54,943 nt of DNA from the NCBI GenBank assembly GCA_964597545.1, contig CAZQXN010000012.1, positions 1 to 54,943 on the forward strand, in the 5' to 3' direction. Source of the stretch: an uncultured Planctomycetia bacterium. Lineage in GTDB: Bacteria > Omnitrophota > Gorgyraeia > 1-14-0-20-64-10. The position numbers were made by a program, and so were the translations under genes. The first letter of the stretch is position 1, and each line of letters starts with the position of its first letter. Below are positions 149 to 9,530 of the stretch, piece by piece. The notes below the pieces were generated by a model that saw nothing but the letters and a program-made list of their open reading frames with translations, did not search any database and was not told the origin of the DNA.

Positions 149-3100
149 TTGCTCTCCGTGTATCGATTGTTACTCTTCAGATTTACCTCGCTTTTCCTAA
201 GCATCGCCCTTGCCCTGCCTCATTCCGCCTATGCATTACGGCGCCAGCAATCCCGCCAAGCAGACCACGTGCGCTCCGGCCTCGAGGAATCCCTTCAAGC
301 CGGCCTCGAGGAACGCTCCTCCAGCAAAAGCAAAAGCTCTGAGAGCATGGGTCCGCTGCGGGAAACAGACTGGCTGATCAGCGCCCAAGAGGCTGCGGAG
401 CAAGACGAAGCTGTTGAGGATGCCCTTGCGGTGGCTCTTCGGGAAATTGTTACAATCGCAGACACAGGGGTAATCGCGGTTAAGCCGGTCAGCCTGGACA
501 CGCTCCAGGTGCACCCGGGAAATCAGATCGAATCCCTGACCCTCAAGGAACTTAAGCAGCAGCTCAAATCCGGAAAGGTCCGGAGATTCCCGCGCTGGAA
601 GAAGCGAATCCTCGCAGCAATCCTGGCGATCGAGCACCACACCCAAAATACCAAAACCCTTTTCACCAAAGAGGGTGCGAAGCGGCAGATCGCTGTAGAG
701 CATGGCAGAATCTTCTCCTACGAGAGGAAAGAACCGCCTCCGGAACCTAAAATGGCTTCTCTTGTCGCGACGCTGGACCGACAACGTATACGGGCCCAAC
801 GCGAAGAGGCGCGCAGAAAGCGAGCAGAAGCAGAAGAGGCAGAGCCAGAAGCCCCTGGCTCACCTGAAGCTCAACCCGGGCAACCGGCAACCGCAGAAGA
901 ACCGTCCCGACCCCCTGATGCGGCATCTGCTCCGGGGGGAAAGCTCCAAACGGATGACACTCCGGCAGCAGAGAGTGGTAGCGCACTACACGATACCGAA
1001 CCTGCTCCAACTCAAGATAAAGACTTTCGCCTGAAACCCTCCGAAACAGCAGCGGGCAAGGCAGAGGGGGAGCAGCATGACGCCGGGTCTCAGCATGCTT
1101 TTAGCAGCGAACAGGATCCCGGCCTGAAGAAGTATGCAGCAGCCCTGGCAGATGCGCGCGATCCGGCTGCCCCTCAACCGCCCCACATGCTTGCGGTCTT
1201 GGAGCAAGCAAAGGTTTGGACGATCTTGGAGGAGATCAGAAGAGTCCTCTTGTCCGAGGATAAACCGAATGCCTGGAGGCGGGTTCGGACAGACCTGGAG
1301 AGTGTTCTGGACCGTCTCAACGAGGTCTATTTCAGGCGCTTACAACCCTCCAGAAAAGGCGTTACCATGGCTTCTTTTGGGGCCGACCAACGACTGGTCG
1401 GCAGAGAGGAAAGAGAATTCCCTCAGGATGTCCTTGCCGTCCCGCTGGCACTGCCCCCTGTGTCCCGCGCTGAACCGAAAGCAACAGGTGTGCCAGCAGG
1501 GAAAGCGGCATCTGCTGTCCCGGCACCGCACATGCCTTCGGACTCGCAGGCTCAAGAACCGCCAGACAAAGTAAGCGAAACTCTGCCGCTCAAACCCGAA
1601 GAACCAAAGCGAAAGGAAGAGACAGCGCAAGGGGAAGAGGCGTCTCAACTAAAACCCATAACGGTTCAAGATCTTCCCAGCTATATGTCCGAGATCGCCG
1701 CAACGGTTCAGGTGGCAATCCAGAATGTGGATAACTTCGAGGGATGGAGGGAGGATGTTGGGAAGATGGGGGTTCAAGCAGGAGCCCGGGCCGGGAGATG
1801 GGCAGCGGTTGTTGCTGCATTGGTGTTGGCCGGCGGGATCGCACTGCTTTCCCATGTGTGGAGCGCCTCCTCCGCTCCGGAGCGGGTCCCATCGGAAACT
1901 GAGCTTAAGCAGCTTCAGCAGGAGCCTCCGGCAACCACTCCGCAGGAGCAGGCGCAATCCGGTTTGGAGGAGGGTGGTCATCGGGAAGAGCTCGGCGGCC
2001 TGCCCATTGGGGCCACACCCATTCGGAAAGGGTTCTGGCTCATTTCCAAACCTACCAGGCATGAGCCCAGCCGGTTTTATCAGGTGGACGATATCGACGT
2101 AGATGGAACTTATGAGGCTCGCCTCATCGCTTGGCCGGAGGAAGAAGAGAAGTCGGCGGCACAACCGATCGAGATCCCGCCGGAAGCGTATCGACAATAC
2201 ATGCACTTCACACAGCCGTCTCCAACCAAACGGTCTGCCGGGCTGCCTGTTACAGGTGCAATCCTACCCTCTGGAACCCATTTCTCCTCTAAAAGAAACC
2301 CCCGTCAACTTTATCGACTCAGCGGTGTCAACACAGCGGTAACGTACGTGGCCAAGCCCATCCCTTGGCCGGAGGAAGCATCTAGGCTGACAAGGAGGGA
2401 GGCAGAAAAAGGCAGTGGTAAGGAAATCCGGATCCCCCCAGAAGAGCATGAGAATTTCGTACGCCTTGAAGGCGAAGCCGCCAAAACAGATCCTGGGCTG
2501 CCCCTTGGAGATGTGCCTCTGCTGAAGAGGGCCGAGATAGCCTCCGTGGCAGGCACCCAGCGTCAACTGTATCGAATTACCGATGTCGAAACAGTGGTAA
2601 CGTCGTACGTAGCCACCCCCATCCCTTGGCCGGAGGATGTACCCGGTTATCTGCAACCGGTCAGCCCACGGGAGCGCAAGCAGTATTGGTACCTACCGGA
2701 TTGGGGCGGCGACCTCATCTGGGAGACGGTCCGGCTGGAGCGAAAAATCAAGGCGCTGGGAACCGTTGCGGGAGCCTTTGAGCATTCGCAGCTGCCGACC
2801 CGCCTTGCCCAGATGCGTTATAGCGTCCTCACCAGATACCCTAGGATGAGAAGGATCGATGCCCAATTCGAACAGACCCGAGTAGGACTGCGTGCGTTTC
2901 TGGAGCGGGAAGGCGGGACATTTTCTTTGGCTGACCGAGAGGAGTTGAAACAGCTCATGGCCAACTTCCGCAGGGGAGCAACCCTCTGGATCGAGAAGGC
3001 GCGTCAAGAGCGCCTGGCCTACTGGTCCGGCTTCAGGCGCGGCATTCTCTCCCGTGGAACCCCGATCACCTTGGCTGGAACCGGTGTTCTCATTTTGCTG

Positions 3101-4744
3101 GGGTTGTGGGGCTTTGCCCGGTTTGGCCCATCCATCGCGGCATTTTGGCGCGACATGCAGGATGACGGGCAGAGTAAGGTTGTTTCGGTTGAGACCCCCG
3201 GAGCAGATCTGCCGATAAAGAAGAAGCTCGAGGCTCAGATCACACCAACAGCGCCACCTCAGTTCAACCTGTCCCTGTCAGACGCCGAAAGAACCAGCGG
3301 TCTCTCTGCCGAGCGGTTCAGAGTGAACTTCTATAAGCAGGTGGGCGGTAGCTATGAACTGCTACGATCAGTTGAGATCGACCCCCAGCAAAGCAGGCAG
3401 GTACCCTTTTCGAATTCTGCGGAAAAGAATGAGATAGATCTGGTTACCGTGGATCCGATCCGACCGGATGGTTCGTTCGAACCGCCCCAACCGCCGGATT
3501 CGTTGGATGAAGACCACAGAGATGCAAACGGCAATAAAGCGAGCTTGCGGAGGCCCCGGATTGGGGGTGCTTGGGGCATGATAGACGAGTGGCGCATTCC
3601 GCTCTCCGCAGCGCCTCATTCAGTCAGCGATGACGGCAATCGGATCACGGTGAACCTGCCAAAGGAGTTGTGGGGTTCGCTTCGAGATAAGGCGCTGGTT
3701 CTGTACGTTCAAGACCGGGTCGCGCAGCGTTTCTACCGGTACCGGTACGAACCTTCTCGCGGTGGAAACACAACCCATTGGGGCAAAGTAGGTTCTGAGG
3801 ATCCTGGTTGGGATGGGCACATTGCTTTTGTCAACCCAGGGAATGCGCCTGTCAAGCCAGGTGATGCGTCTGGCCGATGGCAGGCTTACCTGCTGGGTTT
3901 TCCCGGCCATGAAATCGCAGATGCTGCCGGGGAACCTCAAGCGTTGAACAAGTTCAAAAACCTCACCATTGTTATCAGGGTCCTCCTGGATGGGGGCACA
4001 GGCGGGTTGGAGATTTGGCCGCGGTTTCCAGGAACCCGGGCAGAAAGCAAACGGGGAGGCCTTGAAGAGATCTCTGCCCCTGTCTTAGAGCGCCCTGCCG
4101 CACCCATCACCCGCGCTGCGCAGCCCATCATTGGGCCGGGCCAGCACCTCCCTCCTTCTGCCGCCCGAATACATCCGCCGGCACCTCCTGTTGAGCTGAT
4201 GGATCCGGTTACGGCAGCAGACCAAACCTTTGCCCTGATGACCGCCTTTGACGAGTTTAACCGGCAAATGACAACCGCTCGGTTCCATGCCGCACCCGCC
4301 ACACCTTCAGCTACTCTTGATGTTTTTGATCTGGCGGCCAAACCTCATCATGCCCTTGCCCTGCCCTATTTGCCTGACGCAGTGGCCTTGGTTTCCTCCA
4401 GCAAGATCCTAGAGCCGGTGGAGTTGATGACGAATCGAGCGATCCCTGGGCGTAGGATTCTAGCCTTCAGTGTGGAGGGGGGGCTTGAGGAGGTACTTGG
4501 ACAGCTTGCTCAATCCTTCCCTGCTGCAGAGACAATCCGCATTCACTCCACCCGTCCGGATGCAGTGCGCGCTGCGGTCCATCAGGCTACAGCGGGTGGC
4601 GTGATGAGCGGTGTGCGCTTCGACGTAGTGCAGGCCGCAGGACTTCAAGAGCTGCTTCTTAACATAGGCGTGATCGATCAGGGCGCCCTGGATGTGCTGC
4701 TCAATCTGATCGAGCGCGCAGGGAAACTCATCCGATACCTCTAA
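149..4744 (+). CDS. Large (1531 aa) secreted/membrane protein of unknown function with recurring xGLEE motifs, two internal TM helices and three internal ~80-aa repeats
   Basis: Long ORF; signal peptide ending AYA|LR; GLEE at aa 43, 51, 604, 1303, 1444; TM segments WAAVVAALVLAGGIALL and ITLAGTGVLILLGLWGF; promoter upstream and hairpin downstream. Start could be TTG149 or GTG158. Confidence 0.85.
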   Translation: MLSVYRLLLFRFTSLFLSIALALPHSAYALRRQQSRQADHVRSGLEESLQAGLEERSSSKSKSSESMGPLRETDWLISAQEAAEQDEAVEDALAVALREIVTIADTGVIAVKPVSLDTLQVHPGNQIESLTLKELKQQLKSGKVRRFPRWKKRILAAILAIEHHTQNTKTLFTKEGAKRQIAVEHGRIFSYERKEPPPEPKMASLVATLDRQRIRAQREEARRKRAEAEEAEPEAPGSPEAQPGQPATAEEPSRPPDAASAPGGKLQTDDTPAAESGSALHDTEPAPTQDKDFRLKPSETAAGKAEGEQHDAGSQHAFSSEQDPGLKKYAAALADARDPAAPQPPHMLAVLEQAKVWTILEEIRRVLLSEDKPNAWRRVRTDLESVLDRLNEVYFRRLQPSRKGVTMASFGADQRLVGREEREFPQDVLAVPLALPPVSRAEPKATGVPAGKAASAVPAPHMPSDSQAQEPPDKVSETLPLKPEEPKRKEETAQGEEASQLKPITVQDLPSYMSEIAATVQVAIQNVDNFEGWREDVGKMGVQAGARAGRWAAVVAALVLAGGIALLSHVWSASSAPERVPSETELKQLQQEPPATTPQEQAQSGLEEGGHREELGGLPIGATPIRKGFWLISKPTRHEPSRFYQVDDIDVDGTYEARLIAWPEEEEKSAAQPIEIPPEAYRQYMHFTQPSPTKRSAGLPVTGAILPSGTHFSSKRNPRQLYRLSGVNTAVTYVAKPIPWPEEASRLTRREAEKGSGKEIRIPPEEHENFVRLEGEAAKTDPGLPLGDVPLLKRAEIASVAGTQRQLYRITDVETVVTSYVATPIPWPEDVPGYLQPVSPRERKQYWYLPDWGGDLIWETVRLERKIKALGTVAGAFEHSQLPTRLAQMRYSVLTRYPRMRRIDAQFEQTRVGLRAFLEREGGTFSLADREELKQLMANFRRGATLWIEKARQERLAYWSGFRRGILSRGTPITLAGTGVLILLGLWGFARFGPSIAAFWRDMQDDGQSKVVSVETPGADLPIKKKLEAQITPTAPPQFNLSLSDAERTSGLSAERFRVNFYKQVGGSYELLRSVEIDPQQSRQVPFSNSAEKNEIDLVTVDPIRPDGSFEPPQPPDSLDEDHRDANGNKASLRRPRIGGAWGMIDEWRIPLSAAPHSVSDDGNRITVNLPKELWGSLRDKALVLYVQDRVAQRFYRYRYEPSRGGNTTHWGKVGSEDPGWDGHIAFVNPGNAPVKPGDASGRWQAYLLGFPGHEIADAAGEPQALNKFKNLTIVIRVLLDGGTGGLEIWPRFPGTRAESKRGGLEEISAPVLERPAAPITRAAQPIIGPGQHLPPSAARIHPPAPPVELMDPVTAADQTFALMTAFDEFNRQMTTARFHAAPATPSATLDVFDLAAKPHHALALPYLPDAVALVSSSKILEPVELMTNRAIPGRRILAFSVEGGLEEVLGQLAQSFPAAETIRIHSTRPDAVRAAVHQATAGGVMSGVRFDVVQAAGLQELLLNIGVIDQGALDVLLNLIERAGKLIRYL

Positions 4745-7844: not shown

Positions 7845-8912
7845 ATGAAAAGCGTAATTGCACTTTTTATCGCAGCGGGGATCGCCGCCTGCTCGGGTGT
7901 AGCGCAGGCTCAAGAATCAGAGCCGGTTGGTCAAGATCTAGCGAGGGCATCGGAGGCAGCGCCTGCCGGTCCGGCCGCCAAGAAGCGGGCCCACGAGATC
8001 CAGAAACTCAAGCAGCTCAAGAAGGAAAACCCCCAGAAATATCAGGAGCTTGTCCAGAAGAAGCAGGCGAATGTCAGGCGGCGGCTTAATCATCTCAAGG
8101 AAACAGACCCTCAAGCATACCAGCGCCTTCAGTCCAAAATCCATGATCGCCGGCAGCGCCACATGGAAAAGCTCAAGGCGCAGCATCCCGAGGCGTACGA
8201 GCAAGCAAAGACCAAGCGGCAGGAGCGACTGCAGAATCGTCTGGAGAGGCTGCGCCAGGAAGATCCGCAGCGTTACCAGCAGCTGAATCAACAGCGCCTG
8301 CGCCACCGCGTGCAAAGACTCAAAAACCTCCGGGAGAAGAACCCCGAGGCCTATGAGCGCTTTATGGAGAACCATCCCCGCTGGGCTGAGCGGATTCAAG
8401 AGCGTCAAGAGCGAGCGGTAGAGCGGCGAGAACAAAGGCAGGAGCGACGGCAGGAACACCAGGAGCAACGCAGGCAGCGGCGTGAAGAGCGGCGCGAGGA
8501 GTTTGGGGATCAGCGTCCACTTGATCGAGATGTCAATCCTCCGGGGCGCCGGGGTGGACCTGGAACAGACTGGGAGAACCCTCCGGGACCTCAGGGGGGA
8601 GCCGGGGCCGGGCCGGATCAAAGGCGGCGCATGCGCGGCCCCCGCGAGGATGGGCCGGGCCGGAAGATTGGCCCTCCGGGTAAAGGGCGACATGGGCCGG
8701 GCCGGAAGGTTGGCCCTCCGGGTGAAGGGCGACATGGGCCGGGCCGGAAGGTTGGCCCTCCGGGTAAAGGGAAAGAGGGACCCGGCGTTCGGGGCCCTAA
8801 GCGCGGTGGCGGCAAGGGTCACGGCGGCAAGATGCAGCGCGGTGGCGGCAAGGGTTCAGGTGCTCGTCCCCATCGAGGTAGCGGCGGCCGCGGTGGAGGC
8901 GGCCAGCGGTAG
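7845..8912 (+). CDS. Secreted basic low-complexity protein: five helical xxxPxxY repeats, a charged coil and a Gly/Pro/Arg-rich tail
   Basis: GGAGG SD; signal peptide; KKENPQKYQ, KETDPQAYQ, KAQHPEAYE, RQEDPQRYQ, REKNPEAYE repeats. Confidence 0.8.
   Translation: MKSVIALFIAAGIAACSGVAQAQESEPVGQDLARASEAAPAGPAAKKRAHEIQKLKQLKKENPQKYQELVQKKQANVRRRLNHLKETDPQAYQRLQSKIHDRRQRHMEKLKAQHPEAYEQAKTKRQERLQNRLERLRQEDPQRYQQLNQQRLRHRVQRLKNLREKNPEAYERFMENHPRWAERIQERQERAVERREQRQERRQEHQEQRRQRREERREEFGDQRPLDRDVNPPGRRGGPGTDWENPPGPQGGAGAGPDQRRRMRGPREDGPGRKIGPPGKGRHGPGRKVGPPGEGRHGPGRKVGPPGKGKEGPGVRGPKRGGGKGHGGKMQRGGGKGSGARPHRGSGGRGGGGQR
8650..8771 (+). repeat. 42-bp intragenic tandem repeat, about 3 copies (GPGRK[I/V]GPPG[K/E]GRH)
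   Basis: Units start at 8650, 8692 and 8734 with 1-2 mismatches. Confidence 0.95.
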
Positions 8913-8945: not shown

Positions 8946-9530
8946 ATGGCAAGTGATGAAGAACTCATTCGGGCTGTTTTGGCTGGAGAGGTGGACCGGT
9001 ATGGCGAGCTGGTGGAGCGATACCGGTCCGCCTCCTGGCGGATGGCCTTTGGGTTTGTGGGCAATAACGAGGATGCCAAGGATCTGTCCCAAAATGGTTT
9101 TGTTAAGGCGTATCAGCAATTGCGTCGGTTTCAAGGTCGGGCGAAATTTTCAACGTGGCTCTACCGAATCATTGCCAACGAGTGTAAGGATTTTCTCAGA
9201 CGAAAGGTTCGAGAGCCGCAGGCACTCCCGCTCCCATCCGACCCCGAAGAAGATCGCCCTGCCCTCTTTGATCTGGCCGATCCTGGCAGAGATCCCGGTG
9301 AGGCAGCATCCGATCGTGAGCTGGCCAAAGCACTCACGCAGGCCATTGGGAGGCTTTCGATGAAACAGCGGACTGTTTTTATCCTGCATCATTTAAGCGG
9401 TCTCACAATTGAAAAGGTTGCCGAGGTCATGAGAATCCGGCCGGGAACAGTGAAGGCTCATCTCTTTCGGGCCACTGAGACCCTCCGAACCGCCCTGGAA
9501 CCGCTGATGGACCAGGAGGTGCGCACGTGA
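8946..9530 (+). CDS. ECF RNA polymerase sigma factor (sigma-70 family)
   Basis: DAKDLSQ, F.TWLYRI..N region 2; region 4 GTVKAHLFRA. Confidence 0.95.
   Translation: MASDEELIRAVLAGEVDRYGELVERYRSASWRMAFGFVGNNEDAKDLSQNGFVKAYQQLRRFQGRAKFSTWLYRIIANECKDFLRRKVREPQALPLPSDPEEDRPALFDLADPGRDPGEAASDRELAKALTQAIGRLSMKQRTVFILHHLSGLTIEKVAEVMRIRPGTVKAHLFRATETLRTALEPLMDQEVRT

Follow-up and report, generated by a model that had tools for sequence, protein, structure and literature searches.

A five-residue motif recurs in the leaders and at the module borders of exported proteins confined to one bacterial order

The window analysed here is a 54,943-nucleotide stretch, contig C12 of a 2.04 Mb assembly of an uncultured Omnitrophota bacterium (GCA_964597545.1, referred to as G000; 61 contigs, 93% complete). 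Its gene at positions 149 to 4,744 encodes a secreted protein of 1531 amino acids (aa), P0001, in which a short motif built around Gly-Leu-Glu-Glu (GLEE) recurs. P0001 is one of about 40 Sec-exported, hypervariable, modular proteins per genome that make up an order-restricted superfamily. Members share a bipartite leader (a signal peptide, an xLR element, 0–25 residues and [A/S/T]GLEE), a border motif of the form small-G-x-E-E, and a terminal module. We tentatively read the motif as a module-junction signal, most likely a site of endoproteolytic processing.

Most of the large and giant proteins encoded by uncultivated bacteria with small genomes have no annotation, and a preprint on the giant genes of a small-genome phylum names missing cleavage-point information as an obstacle that blocks analysis (10.1101/2023.11.21.568195). 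A module-delimiting mark would give a rule for splitting giant proteins into units for structure prediction and annotation, would define some 40 exported proteins per genome that are covered by no curated model, and would make it testable at the peptide level whether these long proteins function whole or in pieces. Should the motif direct processing or sorting, whatever reads it would hold a central place in the lineage's cell-surface biology.

Enrichment and form of the motif

Exact GLEE occurs five times in P0001, against 0.071 copies expected from its composition (G 7.1%, L 9.3%, E 8.4%); none of 20,000 residue shuffles reached five copies, and two reached three. An initial annotation of the window had placed seven motif or motif-like peptides in this protein and judged the five exact copies to be beyond chance. 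All seven were placed correctly, and the judgement holds. Across a crude set of 1681 open reading frames (ORFs; 648 thousand residues) of G000, GLEE occurs 164 times against 24 expected, and control tetrapeptides that are reversed, permuted or neighbouring forms of it (GLEQ, GLQE, EELG, GLER) occur at about 1x expectation. The copies are concentrated, with 1620 ORFs lacking any and 37 holding at least two. In those 37 ORFs, [ASTGV]GLEE is found 140 times (1.4 expected) and GLED 11 times (1.0 expected), and a position-by-position scan gave [ASTGV]GQEE as the second common form, with 94 copies (0.64 expected). Carriers of the pattern [A/S/T/G/V]-G-[L/Q]-E-[E/D] number 42 and account for 79.7 of the 648 thousand ORF residues, or 12%; outside this set the motif falls to background (0.042 vs. 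0.035 per 1000 aa). An origin in chance, or in the composition of a Glu-, Leu- and Gly-rich protein, carries practically no weight, being refuted by the shuffles, by permuted tetrapeptides at their expected rate, and by recurrence of the motif in 42 proteins and in other genera.

In 151 of 160 cases a small residue (A, S, T, V or G) precedes the motif Gly. In a position matrix of 138 sites, information is confined to positions –1 to +3 (1.7–3.7 bits), apart from 0.42 bit for Ala at –2; no other position exceeds 0.23 bit. This is the signature of a short linear motif and not of a domain. GLEE, as the motif was first described, is thus enriched, but the motif is wider than those four letters: it reads small-G-[L/Q]-E-[E/D] in this genome, and in relatives its middle residue can also be A, M, V or I.

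The copies within P0001 are written with differing codons, and all four Gly, six Leu and two Glu codons are in use at motif sites of the genome, in keeping with the earlier proposal that selection acts on the peptide. A signal at the DNA level, in which 12–15 conserved bases would serve as microhomology or as a cassette recombination site with the peptide as a by-product, is highly improbable. Such a signal would fit the mild codon skew at the motif (GGC 52% vs. 34%; GAG 74–79% vs. 69%), the homology blocks between carriers that end at the motif (see below) and the frequent location of carrier genes, which are scattered through the genome, at contig ends. It is contradicted by the free use of synonymous codons, by the interchange of L, Q and other middle residues, and by a pre-Gly position that is constrained by residue size (151/160) and not by bases. 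The excess of a DNA-level pattern over its reversed control in this genome (224 vs. 124; Table 1) also comes close to the in-frame motif count.

On contig C2 of the assembly, an ORF of 15417 aa (13–46266), open at the contig start, has a single GLEE; past it, up to position 155963, lie ORFs of 7348, 3526, 3869, 3089, 5062 and 2232 aa, all motif carriers.

The export leader

Sixteen carrier N-termini align over a signal peptide, the sequence P-x-x-A-[YWFL]-A-L-R, 0–20 further residues and [AST]GLEE, with A27, R31 and G-L-E-E invariant. A signal-only model, cut at the Arg and therefore free of GLEE, picks out 23 of the 1681 ORFs, every one of them a carrier; the model had been trained on 16 of these. 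P0001 is the best match of the full leader model (7.6e-19; 7e-9 with the signal-only model). Its signal peptide, which was read from the sequence and not from a predictor, has R6 and R11, a hydrophobic core, LPHSAYA, and LRRQ at aa 30–33, the pattern seen in the 16 aligned leaders; the end at AYA followed by LRRQ agrees with what had first been described. The charged n-region, hydrophobic h-region and small residues at –3/–1 are those of a Sec type I signal peptide, and a twin-arginine signal (S/T-R-R-x-F-L-K plus a hydrophobic region) was not found at the P0001 N-terminus. P0001 thus has the signal peptide, the xLR and an [AST]GLEE within about 25 residues that define the family, together with further motif copies at aa 605, 1304 and 1445.

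In some carriers xLR stands well past the predicted signal peptidase site (TLR..., HHLR...), and LR is therefore a leader element of its own. Of 38 carriers, 34 have the L form at the first motif copy, just past the leader. Where a second copy follows within 170 residues, the Q form is frequent (10 Q, 7 L), and internal copies are divided between 114 L and 103 Q. No Pfam or NCBIfam model significantly matches the leader. Signal peptides that end in PAYALR or PAYAAR and are followed by a helix-like ...EL..AL stretch, free of GLEE, occur in other families of the phylum (loci L030–L034, families f54 and f19), suggesting that the leader is older than the motif.

The carrier whose leader is closest to that of P0001 (G000:C23:30037–30279) is cut by a contig end, and a gene for a TPR plus Peptidase_MA_2 protein (C23:28838–29887) lies directly upstream. 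Twin-arginine-like stretches (SRRQFLRR..., SRRDLLK...) with a hydrophobic run are found 5–20 residues past several motif copies of proteins that have a Sec-type start, for example in G000 carriers C18:24114–29531 (aa 1175–1200), C3:62128–65709 (aa 1014–1040), C6:36415–42414 (aa 213–240) and C10:41490–45710 (aa 52–80).

Motif copies and module borders

BLAST blocks of at least 80 aa shared between carriers, with the leader excluded (n = 62), start within 25 aa of a motif in 69% of cases; 500 randomisations averaged 21% and never exceeded 40%. Several of the blocks span motif to motif and stand at different places in different carriers: C22:40 aa 119–549 matches C58:96 aa 370–801, C40:156 aa 976–1192 matches C11:4569 aa 49–267, and C24 aa 303–448 matches C6:72133 aa 1276–1421. 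The blocks and the leader models together bear out the initial annotation in its picture of paralogues that have the signal-ALR leader in common and inner modules open to exchange.

Folded units end at the same places. Pfam puts WD40 propellers at residues 183–468 and 817–1107, bracketed by motifs at 170/476 and 808/1113. In an AlphaFold model of C6:36415 aa 780–1140 (mean predicted local distance difference test score (pLDDT) 81), the confident propeller begins at the L of AGLEE, in the first strand, and the fold stops five residues ahead of TGLEE, with pLDDT below 50 outside. The borders of WD40 paralogues align as AGLEE/AGQEE and TGLEE/AGQEE, so the L and Q forms are interchangeable at homologous sites. 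Among 14 other carriers, Pfam found WD40 propellers in three, a borderline GGDEF domain in one (24.0 bits; cut-off 23.8) and nothing in ten.

In 33 of 36 complete carriers, 40–200 aa separate the last motif from the C-terminus (median 112 aa; 38% under the null; p ~2.5e-11). The terminal module past it measures about 80–140 aa and falls into several unrelated sequence groups. It is this module that carriers share, and not, as had been supposed, the ~230-aa C-terminal domain of P0001, which the other carriers of G000 lack. The supposition that motifs sit at module borders is upheld by the ends of shuffled blocks and by the limits of the WD40 fold, and fails for the aa 1445 copy of P0001, which lies inside a folded domain.

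A purely structural junction, needing no trans-acting reader, would account for part of this: Gly would break the chain, L/Q-E-E would start a strand or helix, and module duplication and shuffling would spread the unit. The motif does stand where structure starts in the models (the WD40 strand and a helix of the P0001 C-terminal domain), its flanks are of ordinary composition, the modules are shuffled, and the aa 1445 copy is missing from a homologue that is 68–69% identical. We nevertheless hold this explanation to be rather unlikely, since a generic cap would not be enriched ~100-fold in the exported set of one order yet stay at background in other ORFs, nor be absent from other families of the class. 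Modules unrelated in sequence and fold share the same five residues, and the first copy follows the signal peptide, where no preceding module needs separating.

Relatives of P0001

Scans of P0001 with Pfam (two insignificant matches, E 0.067 and 0.64, neither related to P97/P102) and with NCBIfam gave nothing significant. Its modules have no paralogue among the genome's own ORFs by BLASTP or phmmer, the leader being the sole match, and among 5.8 billion protein clusters P0001 finds itself alone. A HMMER search of 1.84 billion representatives returned four partial relatives, and an ESM Atlas search with aa 1330–1531 gave scores of at most 0.80 and no lead. Alignments of orthologues as a conservation test of the motif were dropped because carriers diverge too fast.

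P0004 covers aa 343–1069 of P0001 in two blocks, of 36% and 29% identity, and keeps both hydrophobic helices. The motif after helix 1 reads QSGLEE in P0001 and EAGLEE in P0004, at 29% local identity and inside a poorly conserved linker. A homologue of 1027 aa in genome G007 has AGMEE, SGLEG and AGLES in its leader and AGLEG past helix 1. The C-terminal domain of P0001 is 68–69% identical in P0003 and is shared by P0005, P0006 and G010:C170. Three of the homologues of this domain bear AAGLEE, ASGLEE or AAGTEE just before it, and the GGLEE of P0001 at aa 1304 lies about 30 residues further upstream. An AlphaFold model of P0001 aa 1000–1531 (six sequences; mean pLDDT 44, 50–75 in the C-terminal domain), used for coarse secondary structure only in view of its low confidence, puts GGLEE 1445 at a strand-to-helix turn. 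That GGLEE is kept in none of the homologues of the C-terminal domain (P0003 reads QGLPD).

The G010:C170 locus (L088) also has, on the minus strand, a 755-aa open frame for an FtsH-like AAA protease whose P-loop is broken (GPPGCGK/C...HN/TLLAKA, slashes marking the breaks) by an apparent intein with a homing endonuclease part.

Distribution across genomes

The leader-plus-motif system is confined to one bacterial order. The leader model matches at least 17–21 genes in each of five family genomes sampled; elsewhere in the phylum it gives weak matches only, in 22 of 295 genomes, most of them covering the signal-peptide part alone. Counts of the motif at the DNA level, obtained per genome as matches to the pattern GGNYTNGARGAR and to its reversed control, are given in Table 1. 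Counting GLEE over the proteome and in relatives, a check the initial annotation had called for, thus gives a strong, lineage-restricted excess.

Table 1. DNA-level matches to the motif pattern and to its reversed control in individual genomes
Genome	Relation	Pattern	Control
G000	this genome	224	124
G002	same family	317	148
G005	same family	168	162
G008	same family	233	126
G009	same family	115	29
G016	same family	167	106
G020	sister family, same order	83	33
G021	sister family, same order	115	50
G022	other family of class	40	54
G024	other family of class	51	87
G029	other family of class	54	78

Large ORFs from G009, G020 and G021, which represent other genera and the sister family, have their marks laid out in the same way. 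Which residue stands in the middle of the motif depends on the genome: L or Q in G000, L, A or Q in G009, mostly L in the sister family, L, M or I in G005, and V in G010 and G019. The bodies of the proteins are far less widespread. Fragment matches to P0001 occur in 5 of the 19 genomes of its family and to carrier C19:15665 in 2 of the 19, indicating that the leader and the motif are the sole conserved parts of carriers.

Processing, docking and the search for a reader

In the reading that we favour, tentatively as said, the motif would be read in trans as a module-junction signal. After export, cleavage at the first copy would take off a short propeptide containing LR, and cuts or nicks at later copies would yield modules beginning ...LEE or ...QEE, amounting to a polyprotein-like maturation of surface or effector proteins. 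Processing is favoured because the motif sits where folded modules begin, because cutting at the first copy would release a short LR propeptide, because the format of the motif matches the cleavage motif S/T-X-F↓X-D/E of Mycoplasma hyopneumoniae, and because exchangeable modules suit the logic of a polyprotein. A more ambitious version is conceivable, though we would not expect it: a polyprotein-like export system of ~40 proteins per genome (~12% of coding capacity) with more than 250 junction marks, in which a dedicated reader enzyme (the candidate being a second signal peptidase I beside secD) would cut chains on emergence into exchangeable surface or effector modules. If true, bacteria would thereby have an equivalent of viral polyproteins and of the host-targeting leaders used by parasites.

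Of the enzymes searched for, signal peptidase I (PF10502) shows the cleanest pattern, with at least two matches in 16 of 19 family genomes and a single gene in 17 of 19 genomes of other families; the exceptions among the latter are G029, with two pieces of one frame, and G039, with a weak second match. The two sister-family genomes differ, with two matches in G021 and one in G020. The second signal peptidase I of G000 (C15:34983–35567; L112:4984–5568), of 195 aa, retains intact S-M-x-P and K-R motifs, and this gene lies near secD and recJ in three genomes. Used as a query against 301 genomes of the phylum, it found matches of 43–51% identity in five of five family genomes and only there, and elsewhere at most 42% and 88 bits. 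S26 substrates have a small residue at –1 of the cut and a small or aliphatic one at –3; at the motif, A, S, T, G or V stands at –1 in 151 of 160 sites, while –3 stays close to background (see below). A complex prediction of this peptidase (aa 45–195, four-row alignment) with P0001 aa 586–625 scored 0.00, a value that counts neither for nor against their interaction. We regard the enzyme as a lead for the motif reader and only that; it may simply process the signal peptides of the family.

A number of results weigh against processing, beginning with the fact that cutting at the motif is something we infer. Letters shared by the motif copies themselves slightly favour the outcome of the block-boundary test. 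The flanks of 218 internal motifs are close to carrier background in composition and lack a clear disorder signature, indicating that motifs are not generally set in long disordered linkers, and many last copies, including that at aa 1445 of P0001, follow a hydrophobic strand inside an apparent folded alpha/beta unit. Were both hydrophobic helices of P0001 membrane-spanning, the aa 605 copy would be cytoplasmic and the others outside, which is awkward for one protease. The order-specific second signal peptidase I represents a single evolutionary event and gives no statistical association, and residue –3 of the motif is small or aliphatic in 54% of sites against a background of 52%, showing no signal-peptidase-like preference.

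The other peptidases belong to the same side of the balance: a look for a co-occurring peptidase had been suggested, and none of those searched for correlates cleanly with the motif. C39 peptidase (PF03412) was not found in G000, at 93% completeness and with the control matched in 7 of 14 genomes, which speaks against the carriers being double-glycine leader substrates. Sortase (PF04203) was not found in G000, nor an L-P pattern ahead of the motif, which speaks against LPXTG-type sortase substrates, and rhomboid was not found in G000 either. G000 encodes four S8 subtilases, two M48 peptidases and two TPR plus Peptidase_MA_2 proteins. An S8 subtilase was rejected as a clean partner, being absent from searches of the motif-rich genomes G005 and G007, and the TPR plus Peptidase_MA_2 protein was rejected as a necessary partner, as it was not found in G009 (98% complete, with the strongest motif excess) or G007.

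In wider counts, 15 of 19 family genomes and one of two sister-family genomes have an S8 match of any kind (16 of 21 in the order), against 5 of 19 elsewhere; the S8 genes of G000 lie on other contigs than P0001. The TPR plus Peptidase_MA_2 protein encoded beside carrier C23:30037 has close matches in 17 of 19 family and two of two sister-family genomes, with weaker homologues in 9 of 19 other-family genomes sampled. Peptidase_C80 (PF11713) was not found in a search whose control matched nowhere, nor in Pfam scans of P0001 and 14 carriers.

Three of the secreted S8 subtilases of G000 are very large (1423, 1988 and 2061 aa; C11:29199–39702 and C26:15301–21486), with FG-GAP, PKD and Ig-like domains and one dockerin.

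The motif could instead be a docking or sorting signal that stays uncut, with a receptor, chaperone or secretion component common to the carriers binding it as a short linear motif. Present once in the leader and again at each border, it might, for example, retain long chains during export, anchor modules to the envelope or direct onward targeting. A sharp five-residue motif with unconserved flanks would suit such a role, as would the first copy beside the signal peptide, the joint restriction of motif and leader to one order, the genome-specific preference at the middle residue, the presence of copies both in coil and in surface turns of folded units, and the lack of a protease that tracks the motif cleanly. 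No candidate receptor was found, however. In the sole confident model the L-E-E half already lies in the first strand of the module, whereas docking motifs are usually free, and docking would not require the strict placement at module borders and shuffled-block ends. We consider docking possible but doubtful.

Comparison with known systems

The surface adhesins P97/P102 of Mycoplasma hyopneumoniae are cut at S/T-X-F↓X-D/E, as shown by mass spectrometry (PMC3322551); the cleaving protease was not known when that paper was written. As here, these are paralogous large surface proteins of a small genome with a short motif between functional fragments, and the two motifs are alike in format: a small or hydroxyl residue (P3), any residue, a hydrophobic residue (P1), then acidic residue(s) (P2'). 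In the carriers, by contrast, G is invariant, L/Q replaces F, two acidic residues follow, and the motif also stands in the export leader and at shuffled modules; cutting is proven there and inferred here. Pfam and the 5.8-billion-protein search gave no sequence homology of P0001 to P97/P102, and the likeness is functional only.

The initial annotation had also drawn an analogy with cyanobactin precursors, which turns out to be a likeness of letters. The cyanobactin protease PatA is subtilisin-like. It cuts after GLEAS in the precursors (PMC4282754). Shared with the carriers are the letters G-L-E, a motif that delimits cassettes and, in G000, the presence of four S8 subtilases. Size, context and gene neighbourhood differ: cyanobactin precursors are short and belong to a dedicated gene cluster with PatA/PatG-type proteases and a heterocyclase, whereas carriers have 500–7000 aa, folded domains, Sec leaders and housekeeping neighbours. 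P0001 was accordingly rejected as a PatE-like precursor, given its 1531 aa, unrelated neighbours and S8 genes on other contigs.

In MARTX toxins, an internal cysteine protease domain releases effector modules by cutting after Leu in inter-domain linkers. These toxins resemble the carriers as very large exported proteins with exchangeable modules and short linker sites in between, and differ in having a type I secretion signal instead of a Sec-type leader, and a different motif. Bipartite host-targeting leaders are known from oomycetes (RxLR-dEER) and Plasmodium (PEXEL, RxLxE/Q/D). There too, a signal peptide is followed within tens of residues by LR-containing and acidic elements, in large and fast-evolving secreted families; they belong to another domain of life and lack homology to the carriers, in which the acidic element recurs at module borders. 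Among bacteria, YSIRK-G/S and KxYKxGKxW are family-specific signal peptide variants. Like the present leader, they are lineage-specific elaborations of a Sec signal peptide that mark large surface proteins, but their motifs are part of the signal peptide itself and have no further copies within the proteins.

The phrase 'GLEE motif' had no occurrence in the full texts searched, and searches for AGLEE, SGLEE, AGQEE, TGLEE and SGQEE returned unrelated papers only, among the matches listed. The string GLEE has no occurrence in the searchable main text, supplements excluded, of preprints on long proteins of Omnitrophota (including 10.1101/2023.11.21.568195). The five-residue module-border mark is apparently undescribed, and belongs with family-specific export leaders and with processing or sorting motifs.

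The P0001 gene and its surroundings

The features of the gene are collected in Table 2. Translation may start at the GTG three codons downstream of the TTG, as in the database copy P0002, which has 1528 aa. The two hydrophobic helices that had been claimed are present, at aa 551–571 and 973–990.

Table 2. Features of the P0001 gene (positions in the window)
Feature	Position	Strand	Basis or remark
ORF P0001, 1531 aa, TTG start	149..4744	+	alternative GTG start at 158; member of the leader-plus-junction-motif family
Sec-type signal peptide, aa 1–29, ends LPHSAYA	149..235	+	c-region typical of family; signal-only model and leader alignment
LR dipeptide, aa 30–31, conserved xLR element of leader	236..241	+	leader alignment: R invariant, L at least 90%
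SGLEE, aa 43–47, leader copy 1 of junction motif	275..289	+	sequence count, leader alignment
AGLEE (aa 52 copy), leader copy 2	299..313	+	sequence count
Hydrophobic helix 1, aa 551–571	1799..1861	+	hydrophobic stretch also in P0004 and G007 homologue
SGLEE, aa 604–608, low-complexity linker 33 aa past helix 1	1958..1972	+	position kept: P0004 AGLEE, G007 AGLEG
Three tandem ~85-aa repeats, aa 606–850	1964..2698	+	alignment
Hydrophobic helix 2, aa 973–990	3065..3118	+	conserved in P0004
GGLEI variant	4001..4015	+	nothing indicates a functional copy
GGLEE, aa 1303–1307, predicted coil between beta-rich region and C-terminal domain	4055..4069	+	low-confidence model
C-terminal alpha/beta domain, ~aa 1349–1531	4193..4741	+	common to P0003, P0005, P0006, G010:C170
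GGLEE, aa 1444–1448, last copy, 83 aa before C-terminus	4478..4492	+	strand-to-helix turn inside C-terminal domain; lost in homologues
AGLQE (aa 1497)	4637..4651	+	within conserved helix L-x-L-[EQ]-E-L-L-x-N-x-G of C-terminal domain; no independent motif copy

Each of the ~85-aa repeats has GLP.G...P, a Y-R/Q-hydrophobic element and a terminal TY.A.PIPWPEE in the alignment; self-BLAST missed them. Four DNA runs, belonging to two studies labelled seawater or marine metagenome, have contigs that carry pieces of the gene with 0 differences, which shows that the sequence is no assembly accident; no RNA run was listed for the gene. The neighbours of P0001 are housekeeping genes, and include VanZ, an aldolase, an IF-2B family (MtnA-like) protein, a sigma factor and a porin.

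Elsewhere in the window, a secreted protein of 355 aa with no Pfam match (7845–8912, +) is encoded directly upstream of an extracytoplasmic function (ECF)-type sigma factor (8946–9530). Its first half is rich in Arg, Glu and Gln, with a recurring DP-x-x-Y-Q, and its second half contains Gly-, Pro- and Lys-rich repeats (GPGRKVGPPGEGRH, three copies).

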